Sequence record: NC_041877.1
Length of the DNA: 64,000 nucleotides
DNA from: Pseudomonas phage SM1
Strand: one strand, 5' to 3'
Under the pieces are notes generated by a model that saw only the letters and a program-made list of their open reading frames with translations, did not search any database and was not told the origin of the DNA. Made by a program: the position numbers and the translations under genes. Shown here in pieces: positions 3,014 through 55,684 of this stretch; position 1 is the stretch's first letter; the number at the start of each line of letters is the position of its first letter.

Positions 3014-3781
3014 ATGGCTACCAACCGTCCCGTGCCGAAGTCGGCATACTACTCTGGCCAGGGCCGCCTCATCATCGGTGAGCGCGATCCGGTTACCGGT
3101 AAACCCCTCAACCTCTACGAGGTGGGCAACTGCACCGCTCTGGAGATCACCATCGCCACCACCGAGACCGACCACAAGGAATCGATGACTGGCGAGCGGG
3201 CTATCGACTTCACCATCGTGAGCGAGAAGAACGCCACCTTCACCATCACCTGCGAGTCGCTGTCGCTGAAAAACCTGGCTCTCGGCTTCTGGGGTTCCAC
3301 CGCCACCAAGGCCGCCGGTACCGTAGCTGCCGAGCCGATCAAGATCGCCCCGGGTGCGTACGTCGCCCTGGCTAACCAGAACGTCTCGGCTGTCGTCATC
3401 ACCACCACTGGCGGCACTCCGGCGCCGGTACCGACTACTGCCTATTCGGTCGATCCGGAATTCGGGGTCATTCGTTTCAACGACACCGCTACTGCGGGCG
3501 ACGGCACTGTCGAGTACGAGTTCGGCGAAGTAAGCCGTCTCGAAGCTCTGACCCAGGTCGCGGCGCCGGAACGTTACCTGCGTTTCGAGGGTATCAATAC
3601 CCTGAACGAAGAACTGGTGCTGGTCGAGATTCCGCGCGCCCAGTTCTCGCCGCTGCAAAACCTCCCGCTGATCAACGAAGAAGTGGCATCCTTCGAGATC
3701 GCTGGTAAAATCTTGCAAGACCCGCTGGCTGGCGAAGGTGATGCGAAATACTATCGCCAGACTCTGATCACCGCCGCCTAA
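3014..3781 (+). CDS. putative major tail protein
   Basis: 255-aa ORF with RBS aaggagacc. It is the gene immediately upstream of the chaperone pair and tape measure. A strong terminator follows, as expected for a highly expressed structural gene. Confidence 0.5.
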   Translation: MATNRPVPKSAYYSGQGRLIIGERDPVTGKPLNLYEVGNCTALEITIATTETDHKESMTGERAIDFTIVSEKNATFTITCESLSLKNLALGFWGSTATKAAGTVAAEPIKIAPGAYVALANQNVSAVVITTTGGTPAPVPTTAYSVDPEFGVIRFNDTATAGDGTVEYEFGEVSRLEALTQVAAPERYLRFEGINTLNEELVLVEIPRAQFSPLQNLPLINEEVASFEIAGKILQDPLAGEGDAKYYRQTLITAA

Positions 3782-3799
3782 TCGGTAGCGGTTTTATCG

Positions 3800-3826
3800 A
3801 AGGGGCCTACTGGCCCCTTTTCTTTT
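3800..3826 (+). terminator. rho-independent terminator (AAGGGGCC-tact-GGCCCCTTTTCTTTT)
   Basis: GC hairpin followed by T-rich tract. Confidence 0.65.
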
Positions 3827-3838
3827 GAGGAGAAGAAA

Positions 3839-3854
3839 ATGCAAACGCTTGCAC
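3839..3854. repeat. motif copy ATGCAAACGCTTGCAC (includes start codon of 3839 gene; 12 nt after terminator)
   Basis: Same family. Confidence 0.8.
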
Positions 3855-4117
3855 CGAACACCGCCCTTCGCAAAGACGATGTATTCGTAAAGCTCCTTGT
3901 GGACATGGAATACAATCGGGTAATCTGCGGTCCGGGCCGCACCTATACCCATCTTTGGGTTAGTCGCGATTTCGCCCGCCGTAAGTTGCTCAAAGGTGAA
4001 GTCGAGATGGCCACTCCCGATCAACCGGAAGAACAGAAGGTTACCGTGAAGGAACGGCAGGACGACGCCCAGGAAGACGGCAACCAAGAGCAAAAACCAA
4101 CCACCAAACGCAAGTAA
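3839..4117 (+). CDS. hypothetical protein (tail-assembly region)
   Basis: RBS gaggag. The start codon is the first triplet of a motif copy (ATGCAAACGCTTGCAC). Confidence 0.4.
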   Translation: MQTLAPNTALRKDDVFVKLLVDMEYNRVICGPGRTYTHLWVSRDFARRKLLKGEVEMATPDQPEEQKVTVKERQDDAQEDGNQEQKPTTKRK

Positions 4118-4128
4118 GGATCGGAATA

Positions 4129-4725
4129 ATGACTGAGATGACCCAGGCGCAATCGCGCAATCGCGAAGTTTTTCTTTCTACTCTCTCGGCTGTGCAGGAG
4201 TTGTTCGACCAGGGCAGCGCATCCATTCAGGTAACCATCGTCAAGGAAGACGAGAACGGCAACGACGCGGAGCCGTATACCAAGGATGTAACGTTCCGGG
4301 CGTGCAAACTGAAGCATCTGGGCCCTCTCACGCACCTGATCCAGGGCATGGTAAGTGGCCTCGGGGAACCGGAAGTAGTGAAGCTTCTGGAGTACGTCTC
4401 CGAGGCCCAGACCCGTCAGATAGAACAAGGCATCGATCCTTACAAGCTGGATACTGAAGGTTTGGTACGTGAGGCCGGCATCGTCGGAAATCTGGTCCGT
4501 CAGCTTTTTACCGGCGCCGCCGATCTTTTGCCGCAATATGTTGATCTGTTTACTAACCTCACCAAGGAAGAAGTAGAGGAGTTGGAGTTCACCGACGTGT
4601 GCTTAGTGTGTTACGGCATTTTCGCGAGGAACTTCAGTTTTTTTACCCAGAATGGACCCCTGCTCTTTCAAGCCTTCGTTGCGGCGGTTGGTCCCCGGAT
4701 GAACAAAGCGAAAGCGAAGAAGTAA
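4129..4725 (+). CDS. tail assembly chaperone (lambda G-like)
   Basis: Immediately precedes the tape measure. Contains slippery run TTTTTTT at 4638-4644, with an overlapping -1 frame ORF continuing to 5084. Confidence 0.55.
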   Translation: MTEMTQAQSRNREVFLSTLSAVQELFDQGSASIQVTIVKEDENGNDAEPYTKDVTFRACKLKHLGPLTHLIQGMVSGLGEPEVVKLLEYVSEAQTRQIEQGIDPYKLDTEGLVREAGIVGNLVRQLFTGAADLLPQYVDLFTNLTKEEVEELEFTDVCLVCYGIFARNFSFFTQNGPLLFQAFVAAVGPRMNKAKAKK

Positions 4726-5084
4726 AAAAGCGGCGTAGGAAGAAAGGCGCCGGAGGAGACGGGAAGACCGCGAGCAAGGAAGTAGGCCCGCCGGGCTACT
4801 GGTTGGAGACTACAGTGGCTAAGCTGGTCAGCTACGGCCACTCGTTCAAGGACATCCCCGATTACACCCTACAGCAGGTAGTTATTTTTCTAAGCGCTGC
4901 GGGGAGGCTTGAGGCGTCCAGGCGAAAAGCAACCGTCACGGACCTGACTGCCAGCATTGGCGCGATGGTTGGAGGTAGCAAAGAGCTTGCGCGCCACATG
5001 GCTCTCCTAGGCGATGCCGAAACTGGAGAGCCAAAAGATGGCAAACGAAAGCGAACTGACGGTACGCATAAACGGGCAGGATAA
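4129..5084 (+). CDS. tail assembly chaperone -1 frameshift fusion product (GT-like; shift at 4638-4644)
   Basis: ORF 4599..5084 is in the -1 frame relative to 4129..4725. The overlap contains a T7 heptamer (X XXY YYZ = T TTT TTT). This is the canonical siphovirus G/GT arrangement upstream of the TMP. Confidence 0.45.
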
Positions 5085-8000
5085 CCTAACTCCCCAACTC
5101 TCCCAGTTGGAAAGCCGGCTTATCCGATTTGTGGGGGCCGTCTCTTCGGCCCTCTCTGCCCTGAAGATTGCATCCTTCCCCATCCAGGCTATTCGTGGTT
5201 TCGAGCGCGAGATGGCCGGGGTGCAAAAAACCACAAACTTCACGGATGCGCAGATCAAACAGCTTGGCGACTCGCTGGTTGATCTGTCGCGCCGTATCAA
5301 CGTGTCTGCCGAAGACTTGGCCAAGATCGCGGCTGCGGCGGGCCAGCAAGGCTTAGGCCGAGAGGGTGTGGAGGGTATCCGCCAATTCTCCGAGTCGGTA
5401 TCCCGGATGGCTGCCGTACTCGACCTCACTGCTGAAGATGCCGGTACCAACATTGGTAAGATCGCTTCGATCTTCAAGATCAGCCTGCGCGATATCGAGT
5501 CTGTAGTTTCGGCGTTCAACCAAGCGTCCAACAATTCCACGGCGAGTGGCGAGCAGCTACTCGATGTGGTCAAACGTATCGGTGACGCTGCCGGGTCGCT
5601 TAAACTTGAACAGTCGGTAGGTCTTGCCGCGTCCGCTATCGATTTTGGCGTATCGCCTGAAGTTGCCGGTACCTCGCTCTCCAAAATCTTCGCCGAGTTT
5701 TACGGTCGCGCAGACAAGTTCTCCAAGCTTCTCGGGGTAAGCGTCAACGACTGGATGCAACAGCTCCAGAAAGACGGCATCGGTGCCCTGAAAATGTATC
5801 TCGACGGGCTGCGAAAACTCTCTGCTGATCAGCAGCAGAAGGTAATCAAGGAGCTGTCCGGGGGCGGTCGTATCGGAGTGCTTCTGACCAAGTTCGTTCA
5901 GGATGCCAATAACTCCGTTCTGGATAACAACCTGAACAACGCAGTCCAGGGGTACCGTTCCGGCACTAGCGCCATCCAAGAGCAGCGCACCGTCTTGAAG
6001 ACTCTGGACGCTGAGCTGGCCAAAGCCGGAAACAGTTTCCAAGCACTGGGTATCAAAGCTGGGGAGGTGTTCGGTCCGCGTCTTGCAGCGTATATCGCCC
6101 AACTCAACAAAGCCTTGGCAGACCCGGCGGTTATCCACTTCGCGGAGTCGGTAGGTAACGCGTTTCTCGATATGTTCGATAGCATCGCTACGGGCATCAA
6201 GTTCATAGCGGACCTGAACGTTAACTGGGAGAACTTTGTACAGATCGCTAAAACCCTAATAGCTATCCGCTTGGGTCAGTGGTTCCTTAGCGCGCTGTCC
6301 AGCGTCCCCGTCCTCGGCGCGGCCATGACTCGCCTCGGGTTGGACTTTGCGCGATCTAGCGAGCAGCAACGCAACGCCAGCCAAGTAGCCAATACCGCGT
6401 TCCAGACCCAGATTACCCGTATCCGGGAACTCATGGCCCAGCGGCGCGCGTACATTCAGGCGGTTGAGGCGGAGACCCAAGCGGAGATTGCAGCCTCTAG
6501 GGCCCGTGAAGCGCAGACCGCAGCCGAAACCCGTAACCTACAGGCGCAAATGGCTTTGCGTCAGCGTAACGATGCGGTCAACGCGGCGAGCGGGCAGGTA
6601 ACAGCGGCCCGTGGCGGTATTGCTACGGCCCAGGCGGCTGTAGCTCAGCGTGCCGCGCAAGTACAACAACAGCTCAACGAACGACTTCAACGGGCGGAGC
6701 AGCAGCATCAAGCACGTCTTACCGCTATCGTCACCCAGGGCGACGCAGCGCGAGCGGAGGCGCGGGCTCAGGGTAGCCGGGCCGGGGTGCGCCAAGCCAA
6801 TCTTGCTCAGGCAGAGGCCATTGCCCAAGAGGAAGCCTACCAGCGTCGCTCGCTGGCCGGCATCAACGCCTACTACGCTCGTCGCATCCAGGCTGTTCAA
6901 CAAGCTGGCGTGCAAGAGGTAGCGGCTGCACGTCTGGCCTTCATGCAGTCTCTGAGTCAGTTCGACCGAGTAGCGTCGGGTCCAGGGATGATGGTGCTGA
7001 CCAACCAAGCACGTCTTGCGGCTTCGGCTCTCAACCAAGCCGACCAAGCTGCCAATCGCGCGAATGCCAGCCTTACCGCTGCGCAAGCTGCTACCACCCG
7101 GGCCGCTGCCGGCTTCTCGATGTTGGGGTCGGCACTGCGTATTGTAAGTGCCGGGTTCCAAGCGTTGATCGCTATTGCCGGTCGCGTCTTCTTCTGGTTG
7201 TCGATCATCTACCTCGCCTTGGACGCCTTCGGGGTTCTGGAGAACATCGGCGCTGGCTTCCAGAAACTAACCGATGCCATGGGTCTTACCTCGGAGGCGT
7301 CCAGGCGTGAGGCCCAAAATCAGCGAGACCTCATTGCTGCCTACAATGCGGCAAACAAAGCTCGTCTCGACGCCATCGACGGGCTAAAAGCCTACGCGGA
7401 TGCAAGTGGCCGGGTGCGGGATGACGTAGTTACTCGTATTCGCTCGAACTTGACCGATTCGGACAACGACGTTCGCAGTGAGGCCATGAAGCAACTGTTC
7501 GAGTTGCAGCGTGGCGTCCTGGCTTCCCAAGAGCAAGCAACTACCGATATTCAGGGTTTGCCGGAATGGCGACAGAAAGCCGAAGCGGATATTGCTGCGG
7601 TAAAAGCCGAGCTGGAGAAGGCCAAGAAAGACTTGGAACAATCTCTGGCAATAGCCGACATGCCTGTTCTTTTCGACGACACCGGCATGGGCGCGATTGC
7701 CAATCAGCAAGCGGTAAAGATTGCGCAAGACCGCGTAGCGGCTCTCACTCAGTCCTTGGAGGATGCGCAGAAACGTCTTGGTATGTTCACCGACGAAAGC
7801 GAGCGGGGCTTGAACCAGTTCGGCCAAAACGCAGCCGACAATGCCGAGAAGGTTAAAAAGGTACTCTCCGAGCTGTTTACGCAGGACTCGGCCAAAGCCT
7901 TCGAAACCTTGGCTGATCCATTCATCGCTGCGTCCAAAGCGCGGGATGATTTCGCCAAGAAGATGTCCGACCTGAATGAGCAGATCGTACAGGCCACTGG

Positions 8001-52073: not shown

Positions 52074-52889
52074 ATGGCTAAAGGTGAACAGGGCAAAGCT
52101 CGAAACGGTAGCCGTAAAAATCGCCGCGATGACGATGTGATGCGGGATGACTTCGAGGCCAGAATGGAGGGGCCCGTAAAGAAGTCTTGGACATTGCATG
52201 ATCTGGTACCGCTGGAGCCGGGTTCGGATAACCAGCGTGCGGCTATCGAGGCCTACTGCCAAGGTGACCATCTCGCCATGCTCGGCTCTGCCGGGGCGGG
52301 CAAGACTACCTTAGCGTGCTATCTGGCAGCAGGGTCTTTAGTGAGGAATGAGGTTGAGAAAATCATCCTTGTTCGTTCTGCCGTAGAGCAGCGAGAGCAG
52401 GGCTTCGTACCCGGTACCCAAGAAGAGAAAGATGCCAAATTCGAAGAGCCGTATGTCTCGGCCTTCGGCCACATCTTTGGCCACCCCACCACTTACCAGT
52501 GGATGAAGCGGCGTGGATTGATCGAGTTCCGTACGACTGGCAATCTACGGAGTCTGAATTTCGATAATGCGGTAGTCGTGGGTGATGAAGTGCAGAATCT
52601 CAATTTCGAGGAGTTGCATACTTTCATAACCCGTCTAGGCCCTCGTTCTAGGTTGATCATGTGCGGAGACCAAGCGCAGTGCGACCTGAAGCGGTTCGAG
52701 ATCAAAGGGCTGCCGATTTTCGAGGAGCTGGCAGGCGACTTGCCAAACCTCACAGTTGTGAAGTTCAGCAGACATGACTGCCTTCGTCATGGATTTGTCC
52801 GCGCATGGCTCGGTGCCGTCGAGGACTGGCACAAGCGTCGGGAGGAAACACGACCCGTAGCCGATATAACCACGAAGGTAGCCGGCTAG
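52074..52889 (+). CDS. phoH: PhoH-like ATPase
   Basis: P-loop GSAGAGKTT, Walker B VVVGDEVQN and LIMCGDQAQCDL are typical of phage PhoH proteins. Confidence 0.8.
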   Translation: MAKGEQGKARNGSRKNRRDDDVMRDDFEARMEGPVKKSWTLHDLVPLEPGSDNQRAAIEAYCQGDHLAMLGSAGAGKTTLACYLAAGSLVRNEVEKIILVRSAVEQREQGFVPGTQEEKDAKFEEPYVSAFGHIFGHPTTYQWMKRRGLIEFRTTGNLRSLNFDNAVVVGDEVQNLNFEELHTFITRLGPRSRLIMCGDQAQCDLKRFEIKGLPIFEELAGDLPNLTVVKFSRHDCLRHGFVRAWLGAVEDWHKRREETRPVADITTKVAG

Positions 52890-52906
52890 TAGACACCAGC
52901 CACTAT

Positions 52907-52930
52907 AGCCGTCCTTCGGGGCGGCTTTTT
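52907..52930 (+). terminator. rho-independent terminator GCCGTCC-ttc-GGGGCGGCTTTTT
   Basis: GC hairpin plus T5. Confidence 0.6.
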
Positions 52931-52942
52931 ACGGGGAGCGGT

Positions 52943-53272
52943 ATGGGATACAAACTGTTCAGCACTTTCCAGGCAACGCCTAGTACGCTGGGAGAAGTAA
53001 AGCCTGTTTTCTATCTTGATTTAGCTGGCCCGTCGCATAAATGTTTATGGCGATTTGAGGGGCAAGTGGCATCCTCTGTTTCTCACGATAGTAATCTACA
53101 GTGTGTTGTCGAGGTTGAGTTCGAAGTAGCAAAACCGATCAGCTATTCGGCCCTTGCTCCGTTGGCTATCTCGGTGATGAGGGACGCGATACGTGAGGCG
53201 GAAGAGGAGCCGGGAGGGTGGGCTGCTATGAAGTGGAGCGTCTATGCCAAACCGCGACACAGCCATGTGTAG
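52943..53272 (+). CDS. hypothetical protein
   Basis: RBS ggggagcggt-ATG. The track ORF 52805 start lies inside phoH and was rejected. Confidence 0.4.
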   Translation: MGYKLFSTFQATPSTLGEVKPVFYLDLAGPSHKCLWRFEGQVASSVSHDSNLQCVVEVEFEVAKPISYSALAPLAISVMRDAIREAEEEPGGWAAMKWSVYAKPRHSHV

Positions 53273-53907
53273 TTGACACTACTTTTCAAAAGAGTATTAT
53301 TGAGGGCGTAGAGCGGGCTCGGCGTTATTTTCACTACTTCCGTCGAGCCCGTTTTCTCCCCATACGTGTGGGTCCTGGGTTCAACCTAGCTGGGCTGAAT
53401 CAACCGCCTAGGGCTCACACGTATGGCGAGACCCGGTAGCACCGGGGTGATAAACGCAACACGCTACGAAACGTGAGGCTCCCATCCAATGGTGACATTG
53501 GCTAATATGGGGAGTAGGTGGCAGGGCGGAAAGCACGTTAGCGCTGACGTTAGGCACTCCAATTTTGGAATGCGTAGCACGGCCCTGGGAAGTAGGCACA
53601 ATGCGCCCGCGCTCTAGTTGTAGCAACAGAGCGCCCACGCGACTAGGCACGTTTGCGTCAATCCCCTCCGAGCAGGTTAGTAGGAGGGTGAGGGCCTCTA
53701 CCTCAAAACTCTGCGGATGCGCGCTGGTCGTTGCGGGGGTCGTCTAGAGGCTCTAAACTGTAGCTAGTCGGGGTAGCGTCCGACCGCCATATTTGATCTG
53801 TTGTTACGGGGTGGCAGGTTGTTCAGGACCTGATGCTCTATGGCTACGTATCGTAGCCACGGCTGAAACACTGAACCGAGGGGCTGGAAGGGGCCCCTGC
53901 CAAACAA

Positions 53908-53923
53908 ATGCAAGCGTTTGCAC
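53908..53923. promoter_or_regulatory. motif copy ATGCAAGCGTTTGCAC, 35 nt upstream of tRNA-Arg
   Basis: Same family. Confidence 0.8.
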
Positions 53924-53958
53924 TCTACGTAGAACGGATCACGGGAGGCAAAACTTGG

Positions 53959-54030
53959 GGGGTGGTAGCTCAGGGGTAGAGCGAGCGTTTTCTAAACGCT
54001 TGGGCGTGGGTTCGAATCCCACTCACTCCA
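53959..54030 (+). tRNA. tRNA-Arg (anticodon UCU)
   Basis: Hand-folded cloverleaf. Acceptor GGGGTGG/TCACTCC (two G-U pairs), D-arm GCTC-AGGGGTA-GAGC, anticodon stem AGCGT/ACGCT with loop TTTCTAA, T-arm GTGGG-TTCGAAT-CCCAC, discriminator A. Confidence 0.75.
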
Positions 54031-54093
54031 TCTAGAAGTTTAGATGCCACGGAAGGCGTCTACCTAGAATTGCTGTAATCCCTTCAAAGGGGA

Positions 54094-54133
54094 AACGTGG
54101 CGGACGGGGGTTCGATTCCCCCCAGCTCCACCA
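54094..54133 (+). other. tRNA-like 3' fragment (T-arm GGGGG-TTCGATT-CCCCC, acceptor 3' strand CAGCTCC, A, CCA) without a matching 5' half
   Basis: Canonical T-loop and encoded CCA. No complementary 5' acceptor (GGAGCTG) within 200 nt upstream. Confidence 0.35.
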
Positions 54134-54457
54134 AAGACATTCTCGGCCAGCACGTTCGTTCCTAGGTGTGAGAAGGTGGCTGCGATACTGCCGGGTGGTT
54201 GCTAGGAACATCATTCGGAAAGTCCAGCTAGAGAGTGTCTCTGATGGGGCTGTTCAGGATTCGACGCCGCGCGTACTTAGCGAAGGCAGCAAGGAAAGGC
54301 GACGCACCTTGACGCGCGCAAATCGATAAACGCCAACGATACTTCGTTCGACGTTCGCCTCGCAGCCTAAACCCCTGCGGAGTGACGGGTAGCCTCCGGG
54401 CTTCCTCCCCCTGCTACGGCTAGTACCCGTAGTTGCCTTGGAACAGAAAGGGGAGGG

Positions 54458-54533
54458 CCTTCGCGTAGGCGCACTGACGGTCGGCACTCCACCGCACGCC
54501 TGTCAGGGGGCTGTCAGTGCGCCTACGCGAAGG
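54458..54533. repeat. perfect 21-bp inverted repeat CCTTCGCGTAGGCGCACTGAC / GTCAGTGCGCCTACGCGAAGG with 34-nt spacer
   Basis: Arms at 54458-54478 and 54513-54533. Lies in an ORF-free region. Confidence 0.7.
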
Positions 54534-54856
54534 TAGCGATAGTGACCTTCGATCACAAGTGGATATTTCTGCTACGCAACGGGCAGTGCCCGTCACTCTG
54601 TCTAACCTTCGGGCGAGACTGGCAAGGCCACCACCGGCATAGCCGGCGCTGGAAACAGAAGGTGGCCAATTTCAGGAATCAGTGAGCTAGAGCCTGCGGG
54701 CCATGACTAGGGGACACACTTCAGTGTGGACGGTAATGCTCGCCGGGCGCCGCGCTAGCCTCTCTCGTCAAGAGGTACACCCCAGGGGGGTAACGTTGAC
54801 CACCCCGCCGGCTCTAGCTCAGTGATCCCTACCCACACCAGACAGAGGATCGGAAA

Positions 54857-55684
54857 ATGTCTGATGTACTTGAGCCCTTCTATCGGACGGGCCGCACCAC
54901 CCGAGCGCTACACTACGTCGCCATGTGCGCGGTCGAAGGCCAGAAGATTGCCTTTCACTGCCCCAATAAAGAGTCTACTTCGCTTAGCGTCCAAGCTTTC
55001 ATGGGGCTTCTCTGCGCCTCATTTGTACGTTACGAGGCCAAACAGCTAGACAAGGGATACCTATTCGGTACCCACGAGATCACGGTGATAGACGACGTAG
55101 GCCGCTCTCGTGGCTCAGTCGCGTTCTTCACATACCGCAACGGCAGTCTAGGGCCTGACGGTAATCACCGGGAGCTTAGCGAATTCAAGAACGTCTTCGA
55201 TCCGTCCTGCTTCGAGCAGGACCCAAGACTGAGGAAGATTCTCTACGCATACCATGCCTTCGACGATCAGAACGAAACCACGACTCCACGCAACGTGCGC
55301 AACGCTATGTCGGCGCAGAAGGGTCTGCGGGGTAACTCCAGCATCCGCGACGACGGTGCGTATTGGGAGCGCCGTATCGTTCGCAAACTCGCTGAGGCTG
55401 GCGTCAAGGATGTTGTACCGGGCAAGAACAAGGTAGACGACATCGGCTATGGCCATCGTTTCTCCATTCCGTTCAATGCGGCCACATCGCTATCGATTCC
55501 GGACGAAGCAGCCAAAGGCGAGTACCTCCCCGACTGGCAGGCCTGCCTGGGCATCTCCAACGAGCCGCCGGTACACGAGGCCCTGTCCAACTTCTCCGAA
55601 GACCAAACCGAGAATAACGCTGTGTGCGTGATTCGGGCTATTGTTACTTCCATCCGGGCCCGAATCTTCAAGGCGTTTCCCTGA
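54857..55684 (+). CDS. hypothetical protein
   Basis: 275-aa ORF with RBS gaggatcggaaa-ATG, after a 700-bp noncoding region. Confidence 0.45.
   Translation: MSDVLEPFYRTGRTTRALHYVAMCAVEGQKIAFHCPNKESTSLSVQAFMGLLCASFVRYEAKQLDKGYLFGTHEITVIDDVGRSRGSVAFFTYRNGSLGPDGNHRELSEFKNVFDPSCFEQDPRLRKILYAYHAFDDQNETTTPRNVRNAMSAQKGLRGNSSIRDDGAYWERRIVRKLAEAGVKDVVPGKNKVDDIGYGHRFSIPFNAATSLSIPDEAAKGEYLPDWQACLGISNEPPVHEALSNFSEDQTENNAVCVIRAIVTSIRARIFKAFP

Follow-up and report, generated by a model that had tools for sequence, protein, structure and literature searches.

A probable cluster of structured RNA genes in a 1.6-kb gap of the Pseudomonas phage SM1 genome

What does a lytic phage keep in 1.6 kb of DNA that holds no convincing protein gene? 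In Pseudomonas phage SM1 (NC_041877.1), such a gap occupies positions 53273-54856 of the 64,000-nucleotide (nt) stretch analysed here (the window). It is bounded by the stop codon of a 109-amino-acid (aa) open reading frame (ORF) at 53272 and by the ATG of a 275-aa ORF at 54857. A preliminary description of this DNA reported a tRNA-Arg(UCU) gene and many inverted repeats in the gap, and proposed structured non-coding RNAs, a cis-acting DNA element such as a packaging-initiation region, or an intron- or ribozyme-like element. By the evidence here, the region is an unusually dense cluster of structured RNA genes, the largest of which, M1, is a previously undescribed family. With good confidence, we read it as a cluster of RNA genes that probably forms one promoter-driven non-coding RNA operon of this lytic Pseudomonas phage. 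At least three RNA genes or domains have comparative support (M1, a transfer-messenger RNA (tmRNA) and the domain M6), in line with the first of those proposals.

As the preliminary description had noticed, the gap is poor in ORFs; those present are short (80 aa at most) and overlap one another. Its self-complementarity exceeds chance. Against dinucleotide-shuffled controls, the minimum free energy z-score is -5.7 for 53301-53958 and -4.9 for 54371-54856. In a scan of 49 consecutive 400-nt windows over 20 kb (44-63.6 kb), over-folding was strongest in 53201-53600 (z -4.7) and 54401-54800 (z -3.3), and the others ranged from -2.4 to +1.6.

The phage belongs to Samunavirus, the genus of SM1/PaMx31-like Pseudomonas phages. 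Over the 1,584-nt gap, it is 99.4% identical to Pseudomonas phage vB_PaeS_FBPa45 and 96-99% identical to PaMx31, PA_L9 and UF_RH6, all of the same genus. Searching with the 275-aa protein retrieved the Logan contig L018, which has the same gene order and a 1.1-kb gap with neither tRNA nor tmRNA. Its flanking proteins are 35% and 27% identical to those of the window, and the two gaps have in common the promoter and stretches of 27-41 nt that are 100% identical. A search with the PhoH protein gave L021, L022, L024, L025 and L026 at 60-62% PhoH identity, with L018 at 64%. All six uncultured lineages carry the promoter and M1, and with the window they make up the seven lineages compared below.

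The promoter is of the sigma-70 type (53273-53300, plus strand; TTGACA, 16 nt, TATTAT) and matches the consensus at 11 of 12 positions. Its TTGAC -35 and TAnnAT -10 are kept at the equivalent place in all seven lineages. Transcription would start near 53307.

M1 and the other structured modules

M1 (53301-53792, plus strand) is a conserved structured RNA of about 490 nt, folded with RNAalifold over the seven lineages in an alignment of 426 columns. It begins with a 5' hairpin, H1 (about 53314-53351), and a long hairpin, H2 (53365-53421). The core of about 370 nt follows, shut by three nested long-range helices: the 7-bp closing helix P1 (UAUGGCG/CGCCAUA, 53422-53428/53785-53791), P2 (GCUAC/GUAGC, 53463-53467/53760-53764) and P3 (AAACGUG/CACGUUU, 53469-53475/53648-53654), with hairpins H3-H10 inside. 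The core also contains invariant single-stranded blocks, namely ACGCAACAC, UACAAUGCG, GUUUGCGnCAAUC and GAGCAGnUUnGUAGG. H1 is found in every lineage, with unrelated sequences.

The consensus fold has 95 pairs, 44 of them with compensatory changes. In an independent pair count, 92.7% of the cells were paired compared to 81.5±0.8 in shuffles, and there were 44 double-change pairs compared to 16.8±2.9, a number that none of 500 shuffles reached; the family consists of seven lineages plus near-identical Samunavirus copies, and kinship can inflate these shuffle statistics. When the 3' partners were slid by one to three columns, the double-change pairs fell to 9-13. Thus, covariation across relatives, one of the checks suggested at the outset, found the paired arms kept with compensatory changes, both here and in M6.

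M1 is probably a plus-strand RNA, which the strand tests favour. Its helices contain G-U in 68 cells and A-C in 10, and the consensus fold has an energy of -87.9 kcal/mol on the plus strand and -72.6 on the minus strand, with covariance terms of 4.5 and 0.2, respectively; RNAalifold favours G-U by construction, and the promoter orientation is an independent argument for the strand. All that the M1 data show is that a fold and certain unpaired sequences of this RNA are under selection. In our judgement, M1 is very probably a genuine new family of RNA. With permissive filters, neither the window copy nor those of five relatives matched any family in Rfam 15.

We took the weak Rfam matches as chance, since they fell far below the gathering thresholds: IMES-2 on the minus strand (20.8 vs. 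54.7 bits), plastid UTR motifs over T-arms, and miRNA and snoRNA models. Relaxed ARAGORN thresholds gave only implausible tRNA-like calls, such as a 'tRNA-Pyl' at 53713-53798. Besides, UAUGGCG (53422-53428), whose covariation-backed partner is the P1 strand CGCCAUA (53785-53791), can in the window also pair with the upstream CCAUA (53360-53364), which would lengthen H2 by 5 bp. The two partners may represent a pair of alternative conformations.

The family is rare. By nhmmer profile and blastn, it occurs only in Samunavirus and the six uncultured lineages. The profile did not match L029, whose PhoH is 44% identical, or Xanthomonas phage Rb1, and blastn with the divergent copies of L025 and L021 retrieved four Samunavirus records only. 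Searches of IMG/VR with the 275-aa and PhoH proteins found no related loci, and four M1-derived DNA patterns had zero matches in IMG/VR, JGI metagenomes and GTDB genomes.

Within this narrow distribution, M1 persists whatever its neighbours. An upstream small ORF is absent in L022, where M1 is kept. On the 3' side lie tRNA-Arg in the window, an 82/83-aa ORF in L022, L024-L026, PA_L9 and UF_RH6, a DNA ligase gene in L021, and other structured sequence in L018. The window, L022 and L026 have a tRNA or tmRNA 3' of M1. The tmRNA is younger than M1, which also exists without it.

Our best guess is that M1 is a stable, abundant, trans-acting RNA that targets the host machinery for translation or tRNA processing, because it has its own promoter, persists beside different neighbours, and has a 7-bp closing helix stacked on a 5-bp hairpin.

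M2 (53793-53958, plus strand) is a less conserved structured spacer. Over 53357-53924, which takes in most of M1 and the first part of M2, L024 is 70.6% identical to the window. Compensatory changes can be read from the alignments for its hairpins at 53857-53873 and 53881-53898, and it ends in a palindrome, TGCAAGCGTTTGCA, also written TGCAAnCGnTTGCA (53909-53922), present in all lineages. The palindrome is kept in sequence and not only in pairing, about 120-160 nt after M1 in all relatives. It could be the 3'-terminal hairpin of an M1/M2 transcript or a site for a dimeric protein.

Further structured modules lie downstream of the tmRNA tag, all on the plus strand. The perfect 21-bp inverted repeat with a 34-nt loop (I3, 54458-54478/54513-54533) was confirmed where the preliminary description had placed it (54458-54533). 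At this position, L022 has a shorter hairpin of different sequence, and UF_RH6 lacks 11 nt of the loop. The conserved block M5 (54574-54673) follows, with the hairpins ACGGGCAGUGCCCGU and GGCCACC...GGUGGCC. M5 also occurs in L018, which lacks the tmRNA; it thus belongs with the downstream gene and not with the tmRNA. M6 (54674-54830) is a structured domain of about 157 nt, closed by a helix of about 25 bp (the inverted repeat I1, 54674-54700/54804-54830) just upstream of the ribosome-binding site (RBS) of the 275-aa gene. L018 has no M6. L022 has it, and compared to the window both bases differ in 12 of the 41 predicted pairs, while no pair is broken. These modules may form either the 3' tail of the tmRNA coding piece or the 5' UTR of the 275-aa gene. 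The cluster ends on the right at the RBS (AGAGGA) and ATG of the 275-aa ORF (54843-54859), where CAGACAGAGGATCGGAAAATG is kept in L018 and L022.

This arrangement could also suggest that M1/M2 and M5/M6 are not RNA genes but long cis-regulatory leaders (5' UTRs, attenuators or elements like riboswitches), the former of the 82-aa ORF or of the tRNA and tmRNA, the latter of the 275-aa gene. M5 and M6 lie directly upstream of that gene's RBS, and M5 stays there in L018 without a tmRNA. The 82/83-aa ORF follows M1 and M2 in four relatives and in PA_L9 and UF_RH6, and H1 of the window is followed by UUUUCU, as in an attenuator. However, this U-tract is not conserved across lineages, and M1 is kept before a tRNA, before an ORF, before a DNA ligase gene 440 nt away, or with no gene for 550 nt. 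Moreover, 490 nt with three nested long-range helices far exceeds known leaders. Taken as a whole, we consider this explanation unlikely. A leader role is possible for M5 and M6 and unlikely for M1.

We regard as very unlikely that the region is a cis-acting DNA element, either a replication origin or a pac site, in which the hairpins would be DNA structures or protein sites and the promoter would only activate an origin. Its position directly after the replication and nucleotide-metabolism module would suit an origin, and UF_RH6 is reported to be circularly permuted, so that a pac site must lie somewhere in its genome. The palindrome TGCAAnCGnTTGCA is kept in sequence and not just in pairing, and in single-sequence tests the inverted repeats fold equally on both strands. 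Nevertheless, the region has no iterons, its direct repeats being short two-copy matches only, and no AT-rich unwinding block, since its GC content (0.55-0.59) is that of the genome in general. Strand symmetry would be expected of a DNA duplex or cruciform, whereas the conserved helices tolerate G-U and not A-C (the 68 and 10 cells given above) and fold better on the plus strand. About a quarter of the region is bona fide tmRNA and tRNA, and a conserved promoter aimed into the region also speaks against a DNA element. The packaging or cis-acting role first proposed thus finds no support.

Neither does the proposed intron or ribozyme. No covariance model of a group I or group II intron or a self-cleaving ribozyme in Rfam matched, no host gene is interrupted, the tRNA and tmRNA are intact, and the region opens with its own promoter after a stop codon.

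The two-piece tmRNA and the tRNA

The preliminary description held that only tRNA-Arg(UCU) could be folded canonically. This was wrong, since ARAGORN and two Rfam covariance models identify a permuted, two-piece tmRNA of betaproteobacterial type that the first reading missed. ARAGORN places it at 54041-54461 with the tag ANDTSFDVRLAA, and the Rfam models place it from 54071 to 54410. The scores were 118.6 bits for RF04321 (tmRNA_permuted; gathering threshold 47; model positions 1-213 of 213) and 111.2 bits for the betaproteobacterial RF01850 (gathering threshold 84; model positions 1-331 of 331). Thus, the proposed check by ARAGORN and Rfam covariance models called both tRNA-Arg and the permuted tmRNA.

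The gene lies on the plus strand, with the acceptor piece first. This piece (54071-54133) contains the 3' strands of the tmRNA helix P2, the T-arm GGGGG-UUCGAUU-CCCCC, CAGCUCC, A73 and an encoded CCA (54131-54133). An intervening segment of 112 nt (54134-54245), presumably removed in processing, separates it from the coding piece (54246-54460, the 3' end being putative). This piece contains GGGGCUG (54246-54252), an analogue of the D-loop (UUCAGGAUUCGAC), the PK1 hairpin and the 5' strands of P2. The CCA is therefore upstream of both GGGGCUG and the tag (54332-54370), which is the permuted order. The tag ORF resumes at GCC (54332) and stops at UAA (54368-54370). A conserved stem and hairpin element follows it (about 54398-54460).

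The sequence features that mark the class are present. GGGGCUG and CAGCUCC, followed by A and CCA, give the alanine identity set of G3:U70 and A73, and the same is found in L022 and Rb1. The tags of the window (ANDTSFDVRLAA), of L022 (ANDESYGIRAAA) and of Rb1 (ANDDNFRPALRLAA) each have an alanine resume codon, a hydrophobic, alanine-rich C-terminus and a stop.

L022, whose PhoH is 61% identical, has the same tmRNA gene (127 and 120 bits). Compared to the window, its acceptor piece is 90% identical and its coding piece 73%, whereas the intervening segment is 27% identical and 48 nt shorter. The tag frame is intact, with synonymous changes, and the inner hairpin after the tag is compensated (ACGG/CCGU in the window, CAGG/CCUG in L022). 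Conserved pieces and a free spacer make the pattern that would be expected of a functional two-piece tmRNA with a discarded spacer.

Two other candidates were rejected. ARAGORN also called a tmRNA at 53880-54133 (tag ATEGVYLELL), which runs across the tRNA and makes use of the T-arm that belongs to the true acceptor piece; in PA_L9 and UF_RH6, the cassette that contains its 5' half is replaced. RNase P RNA was suggested by GGAAAGUCC (54211-54219) and ACAGAAGGUGGCC (54655-54667), which cannot form P4, and no model matched. GGAAAGUCC is identical to the CR-I motif of RNase P RNA and lies inside the intervening segment; we judged it a coincidence because that segment is not conserved in L022.

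How would these genes work together? Transcription would start at the host-type sigma-70 promoter (53273-53300) and proceed into M1 and on through M2, tRNA-Arg(UCU) and the tmRNA. RNase P would cut the precursor before G54246, and trimming would stop at the encoded CCA (54133). The acceptor piece (about 54071-54133) and the coding piece (54246 onward) would be held together by the acceptor stem (P1) and P2 of the tmRNA. The host alanyl-tRNA synthetase (AlaRS) would charge the molecule via G3:U70 and A73 and, with host SmpB and EF-Tu, the charged tmRNA would enter stalled ribosomes. Translation would resume at GCC 54332 and add ANDTSFDVRLAA, whose C-terminal LAA would direct the product to ClpXP-type proteases. 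This mechanism, most likely the one used by bacteria that possess a two-piece tmRNA, is drawn from membership of the tmRNA family and from established knowledge of trans-translation. The phage could plausibly benefit by keeping ribosomes free during host mRNA degradation, or by changing the targets of tagging.

The tRNA-Arg(UCU) named in the preliminary description is indeed present (53959-54030, plus strand): ARAGORN gives a canonical cloverleaf of 72 nt with anticodon tct (UCU) at position 33. Its acceptor stem (G1-C72, G2-C71, G3-U70, G4-C69, then A73) carries the full AlaRS identity set, and its D-loop, AGGGGUA, has U and not A at position 20. Recognition by arginyl-tRNA synthetase (ArgRS) calls for A20 and no G3:U70, a combination that this tRNA does not have; the A20 rule derives from identity studies in E. 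coli. The charging specificity is uncertain because U20 coexists with the G3-U70/A73 acceptor set, and the tRNA might be charged with alanine or have dual specificity.

Besides the kinship among M1 copies, several points weigh against a single functional operon. Transcription of the region, its co-transcription as one unit and the processing sites are read from sequence features. No convincing intrinsic terminator or internal promoter was found in the region. The consensus fold of M2 is weak (27 pairs, 9 compensated), and M5 is conserved mainly in sequence, with weak covariation (29 predicted pairs, 19 invariant and 1 compensated). No SmpB homologue was found in the 64-kb window in a search with one query sequence; therefore, the tmRNA would have to rely on the Pseudomonas SmpB. 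Pseudomonas has a one-piece ssrA of its own, and the two-piece form is foreign to the host genus. The use of host SmpB and AlaRS and any function of M1, M2, M5 and M6 are inferred, whereas the promoter motif with its conservation, the tmRNA family membership with its sequence features, the covariation-backed folds of M1 and M6 and the modular breakpoints are observed in the sequences.

Part of this could indicate that the tmRNA and tRNA are decaying, non-functional passengers captured from a bacterium, with junk structure around them. The tRNA is dispensable, being absent in PA_L9 and UF_RH6, it lacks A20, and its copy in FBPa45 has a T-stem mismatch. The codons that it would read, AGA and AGG, are rare in the phage (2.0 and 6.1 per 1000), and the tmRNA form is the foreign one. 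However, the tmRNA is kept across about 39% PhoH divergence, with conserved mature pieces and a variable spacer, and its G3:U70, T-arm, resume codon, frame and stop are intact, with synonymous changes in the tag. Furthermore, M1 is older than the tmRNA and also found apart from it. Decay is excluded for the tmRNA and plausible for the tRNA, and as an account of the whole region it is hardly credible.

Missed small proteins, such as PAL9_105 (73 aa, 53218-53439) or a 60-aa ORF at 53565-53747, can be set aside almost entirely: the annotators of PA_L9 and UF_RH6 called short ORFs here and ORFs of up to 80 aa exist, but many of the indels between relatives would shift a reading frame, their length not being a multiple of three, and substitutions match each other across helices instead of gathering at third codon positions. 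In addition, no Pfam or PHROG support was found for the neighbouring small proteins, and no conserved frame was seen.

Module exchange and genomic setting

Within Samunavirus, the breakpoints between genomes coincide with module edges (53792/53793, 53926/53927 and 54066/54067). The first is the end of M1, from which UF_RH6 carries a divergent M2 allele onward. The other two delimit a swappable cassette (53927-54066), and the right one lies 4 nt before the tmRNA. This cassette, which holds tRNA-Arg in the window, is exactly replaced by an 83-aa ORF cassette (phrog_6978) in Samunavirus genomes that are 98-99% identical, PA_L9 and UF_RH6 (3656-4034 in L002 and 3667-4045 in L003). Because the same ORF follows M1 in four uncultured relatives, the 83-aa ORF probably came first and was later replaced by the tRNA.

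The inverted repeats listed in the preliminary description exist, and two of them are shifted by 2-6 nt from the coordinates given there: CACACGTATGG lies at 53416-53426, and the position of CCCGTCACTC is 54589-54598. The former falls within the repeat I2 (53355-53379/53407-53431) and the latter is an arm of I9 (54380-54389/54589-54598). The long-range pairing of I9 (54380/54589) is probably a coincidence, since each arm has a conserved local partner.

The gap follows a replication and nucleotide-metabolism module that encodes an MJ0330_N protein, thymidylate synthase, dCTP deaminase and PhoH, the last two being the final genes. Some observations concern these neighbours. In UF_RH6 and the BHU records, the PhoH-like ATPase (52074-52889 in the window) and its neighbours are named 'tail length tape-measure protein' or 'minor tail protein', which is clearly a misannotation, as Pfam on homologues gives PhoH and DCD. 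L018 has a free-standing GIY-YIG ORF (6899-7393) between the dCTP deaminase and PhoH genes, a sign of a mobile endonuclease. The MJ0330_N protein of L022 (1364-4438) has 1,024 aa, about 380 aa more than its homologues, and a faint LAGLIDADG match; it may contain an intein.

In the four usable GenBank records, the gap is annotated at most with tRNA-Arg or short doubtful ORFs, and none has the tmRNA. The records of BHU-1/15/17 resembled natural deletions of the whole region, which we ruled out because their intergenic DNA consists of runs of 100 N. In Pseudomonas phage Pa BHU-15 (OL473897) and its sister BHU records, each intergenic region is exactly 100 N.

Samunaviruses are culturable lytic P. 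aeruginosa phages that are considered for therapy, and their public records leave 1.6 kb blank or filled with doubtful ORFs. This annotation can now be corrected with a complete two-piece tmRNA of a form foreign to the host. The locus offers a tractable system to ask why lytic phages carry their own RNA for ribosome rescue and whether it is accepted by the host's SmpB and AlaRS. With M1, a strongly covarying RNA of about 490 nt joins the very few large ornate phage RNAs on record. Unlike for most of these, knock-outs, Northern blots and cryo-EM are feasible, because there are growable isolates and a manipulable host. Finally, the modular swapping (tRNA or ORF, with or without tmRNA, with or without M6) shows how phage non-coding RNA clusters assemble.

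Comparison with known systems

The tmRNA gene has the layout of betaproteobacterial two-piece tmRNAs (RF01850/RF04321), with the acceptor piece, the intervening segment and the coding piece in this order. It shares with them the T-arm, encoded CCA, G3:U70/A73, D-loop analogue, P2 and an alanine resume codon, as well as a tag that opens with AND and closes with LAA. In contrast to them, it lies in a lytic Pseudomonas phage, has an intervening segment of 112 nt and comes without an SmpB gene found in the window. The part after the tag exceeds the Rfam model in size and passes into other structured modules.

Similar genes occur in other phages. Xanthomonas phage Rb1 (PQ569993) has an unannotated permuted tmRNA (3973-4278, 103 bits, tag ANDDNFRPALRLAA) that is about 60% identical. 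It lies inside a 2.6-kb unannotated gap (3016-5648) that also holds a tRNA-Phe and, directly after a promoter-like TTGACG...CAATACT, a tRNA-like sequence with a 15-nt anticodon loop (read by eye). The contig IMGVR_UViG_3300009551_000370 (4955-6186, minus strand) has a beta-type permuted tmRNA (150 bits, tag ANEDIFEAPLALAA), and about 0.8 kb upstream of it a tRNA with a two-base 'anticodon' that ARAGORN could not assign. Eleven IMG/VR contigs with the 32-mer of the T-arm and acceptor have nothing else in common with the window.

Permuted genes account for 53 of 133 unique phage tmRNAs (Buchholz et al. 2022, PMC9004378). Table S1 of that study includes 'Pseudomonas_phage_SM1' (93,191 bp), for which ARAGORN made two calls, one 'linear' and the other 'Permuted'; our analysis gave exactly these two. 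The 2025 tmRNA database, the source of RF04321, holds 79 phage sequences. The tmRNA component is thus already known in kind, since phage two-piece tmRNAs are documented and SM1 is in that table; it is listed for the genus and was never analysed or annotated there. Like SM1, OM43 phage Melnitz (Buchholz et al. 2022, PMC9004378) is lytic and carries an entire permuted ssrA whose lineage type is not that of its host's gene. Unlike SM1, Melnitz is a marine phage whose alphaproteobacterial-type tmRNA is linked to a glutamine riboswitch, whereas the beta-type tmRNA of SM1 is found in a sewage or clinical phage and is linked to a new large RNA.

M1 recalls tRNAs and one-piece tmRNAs in its layout. 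As in one-piece tmRNAs and tRNA-like domains, a core of about 370 nt is shut by a 7-bp helix. The 3' strand of P1 comes directly after a 5-bp hairpin, like an acceptor strand after a T-arm, and 2 nt upstream of the hairpin there is another helix of 5 bp, in a place like that of the anticodon stem. In contrast, M1 lacks G3:U70, a T-loop sequence and a conserved tag frame, CCA follows its closing helix in only one of the seven lineages, and no tmRNA or tRNA model matched it. We take this resemblance as a lead read from the predicted fold and not as a classification.

ROOL and GOLLD are large ornate RNAs encoded by phages beside tRNA genes, and they form RNA-only cages (Kretsch et al. 2025, PMC12286853). 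M1 is found in this type of setting, as a phage-encoded RNA of several hundred nt with a covarying multi-helix fold that adjoins tRNA genes. Like ROOL and GOLLD, it has many covariation-backed helices and no known protein partner or function. Their covariance models found no match at E<=10 (53290-53960), at E<=5 (52800-55200) or at E<=1 in five relatives; they have other sequence motifs and another helix topology, and the M1 family is much rarer. More tentatively, M1, possibly together with M2, may found a class of large trans-acting phage RNAs, either as a tRNA/tmRNA-like mimic or as a self-assembling scaffold that engages host translation or tRNA-processing factors. In this reading, M1 could cooperate with the phage tRNA and two-piece tmRNA, both grafted onto one transcription unit. 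Such RNAs would be unrelated in sequence and fold to ROOL, GOLLD and OLE, yet of similar lifestyle, a proposal that we still hold as doubtful. M1 belongs to neither ROOL nor GOLLD, and on the comparison made here these two are its nearest analogues in lifestyle.

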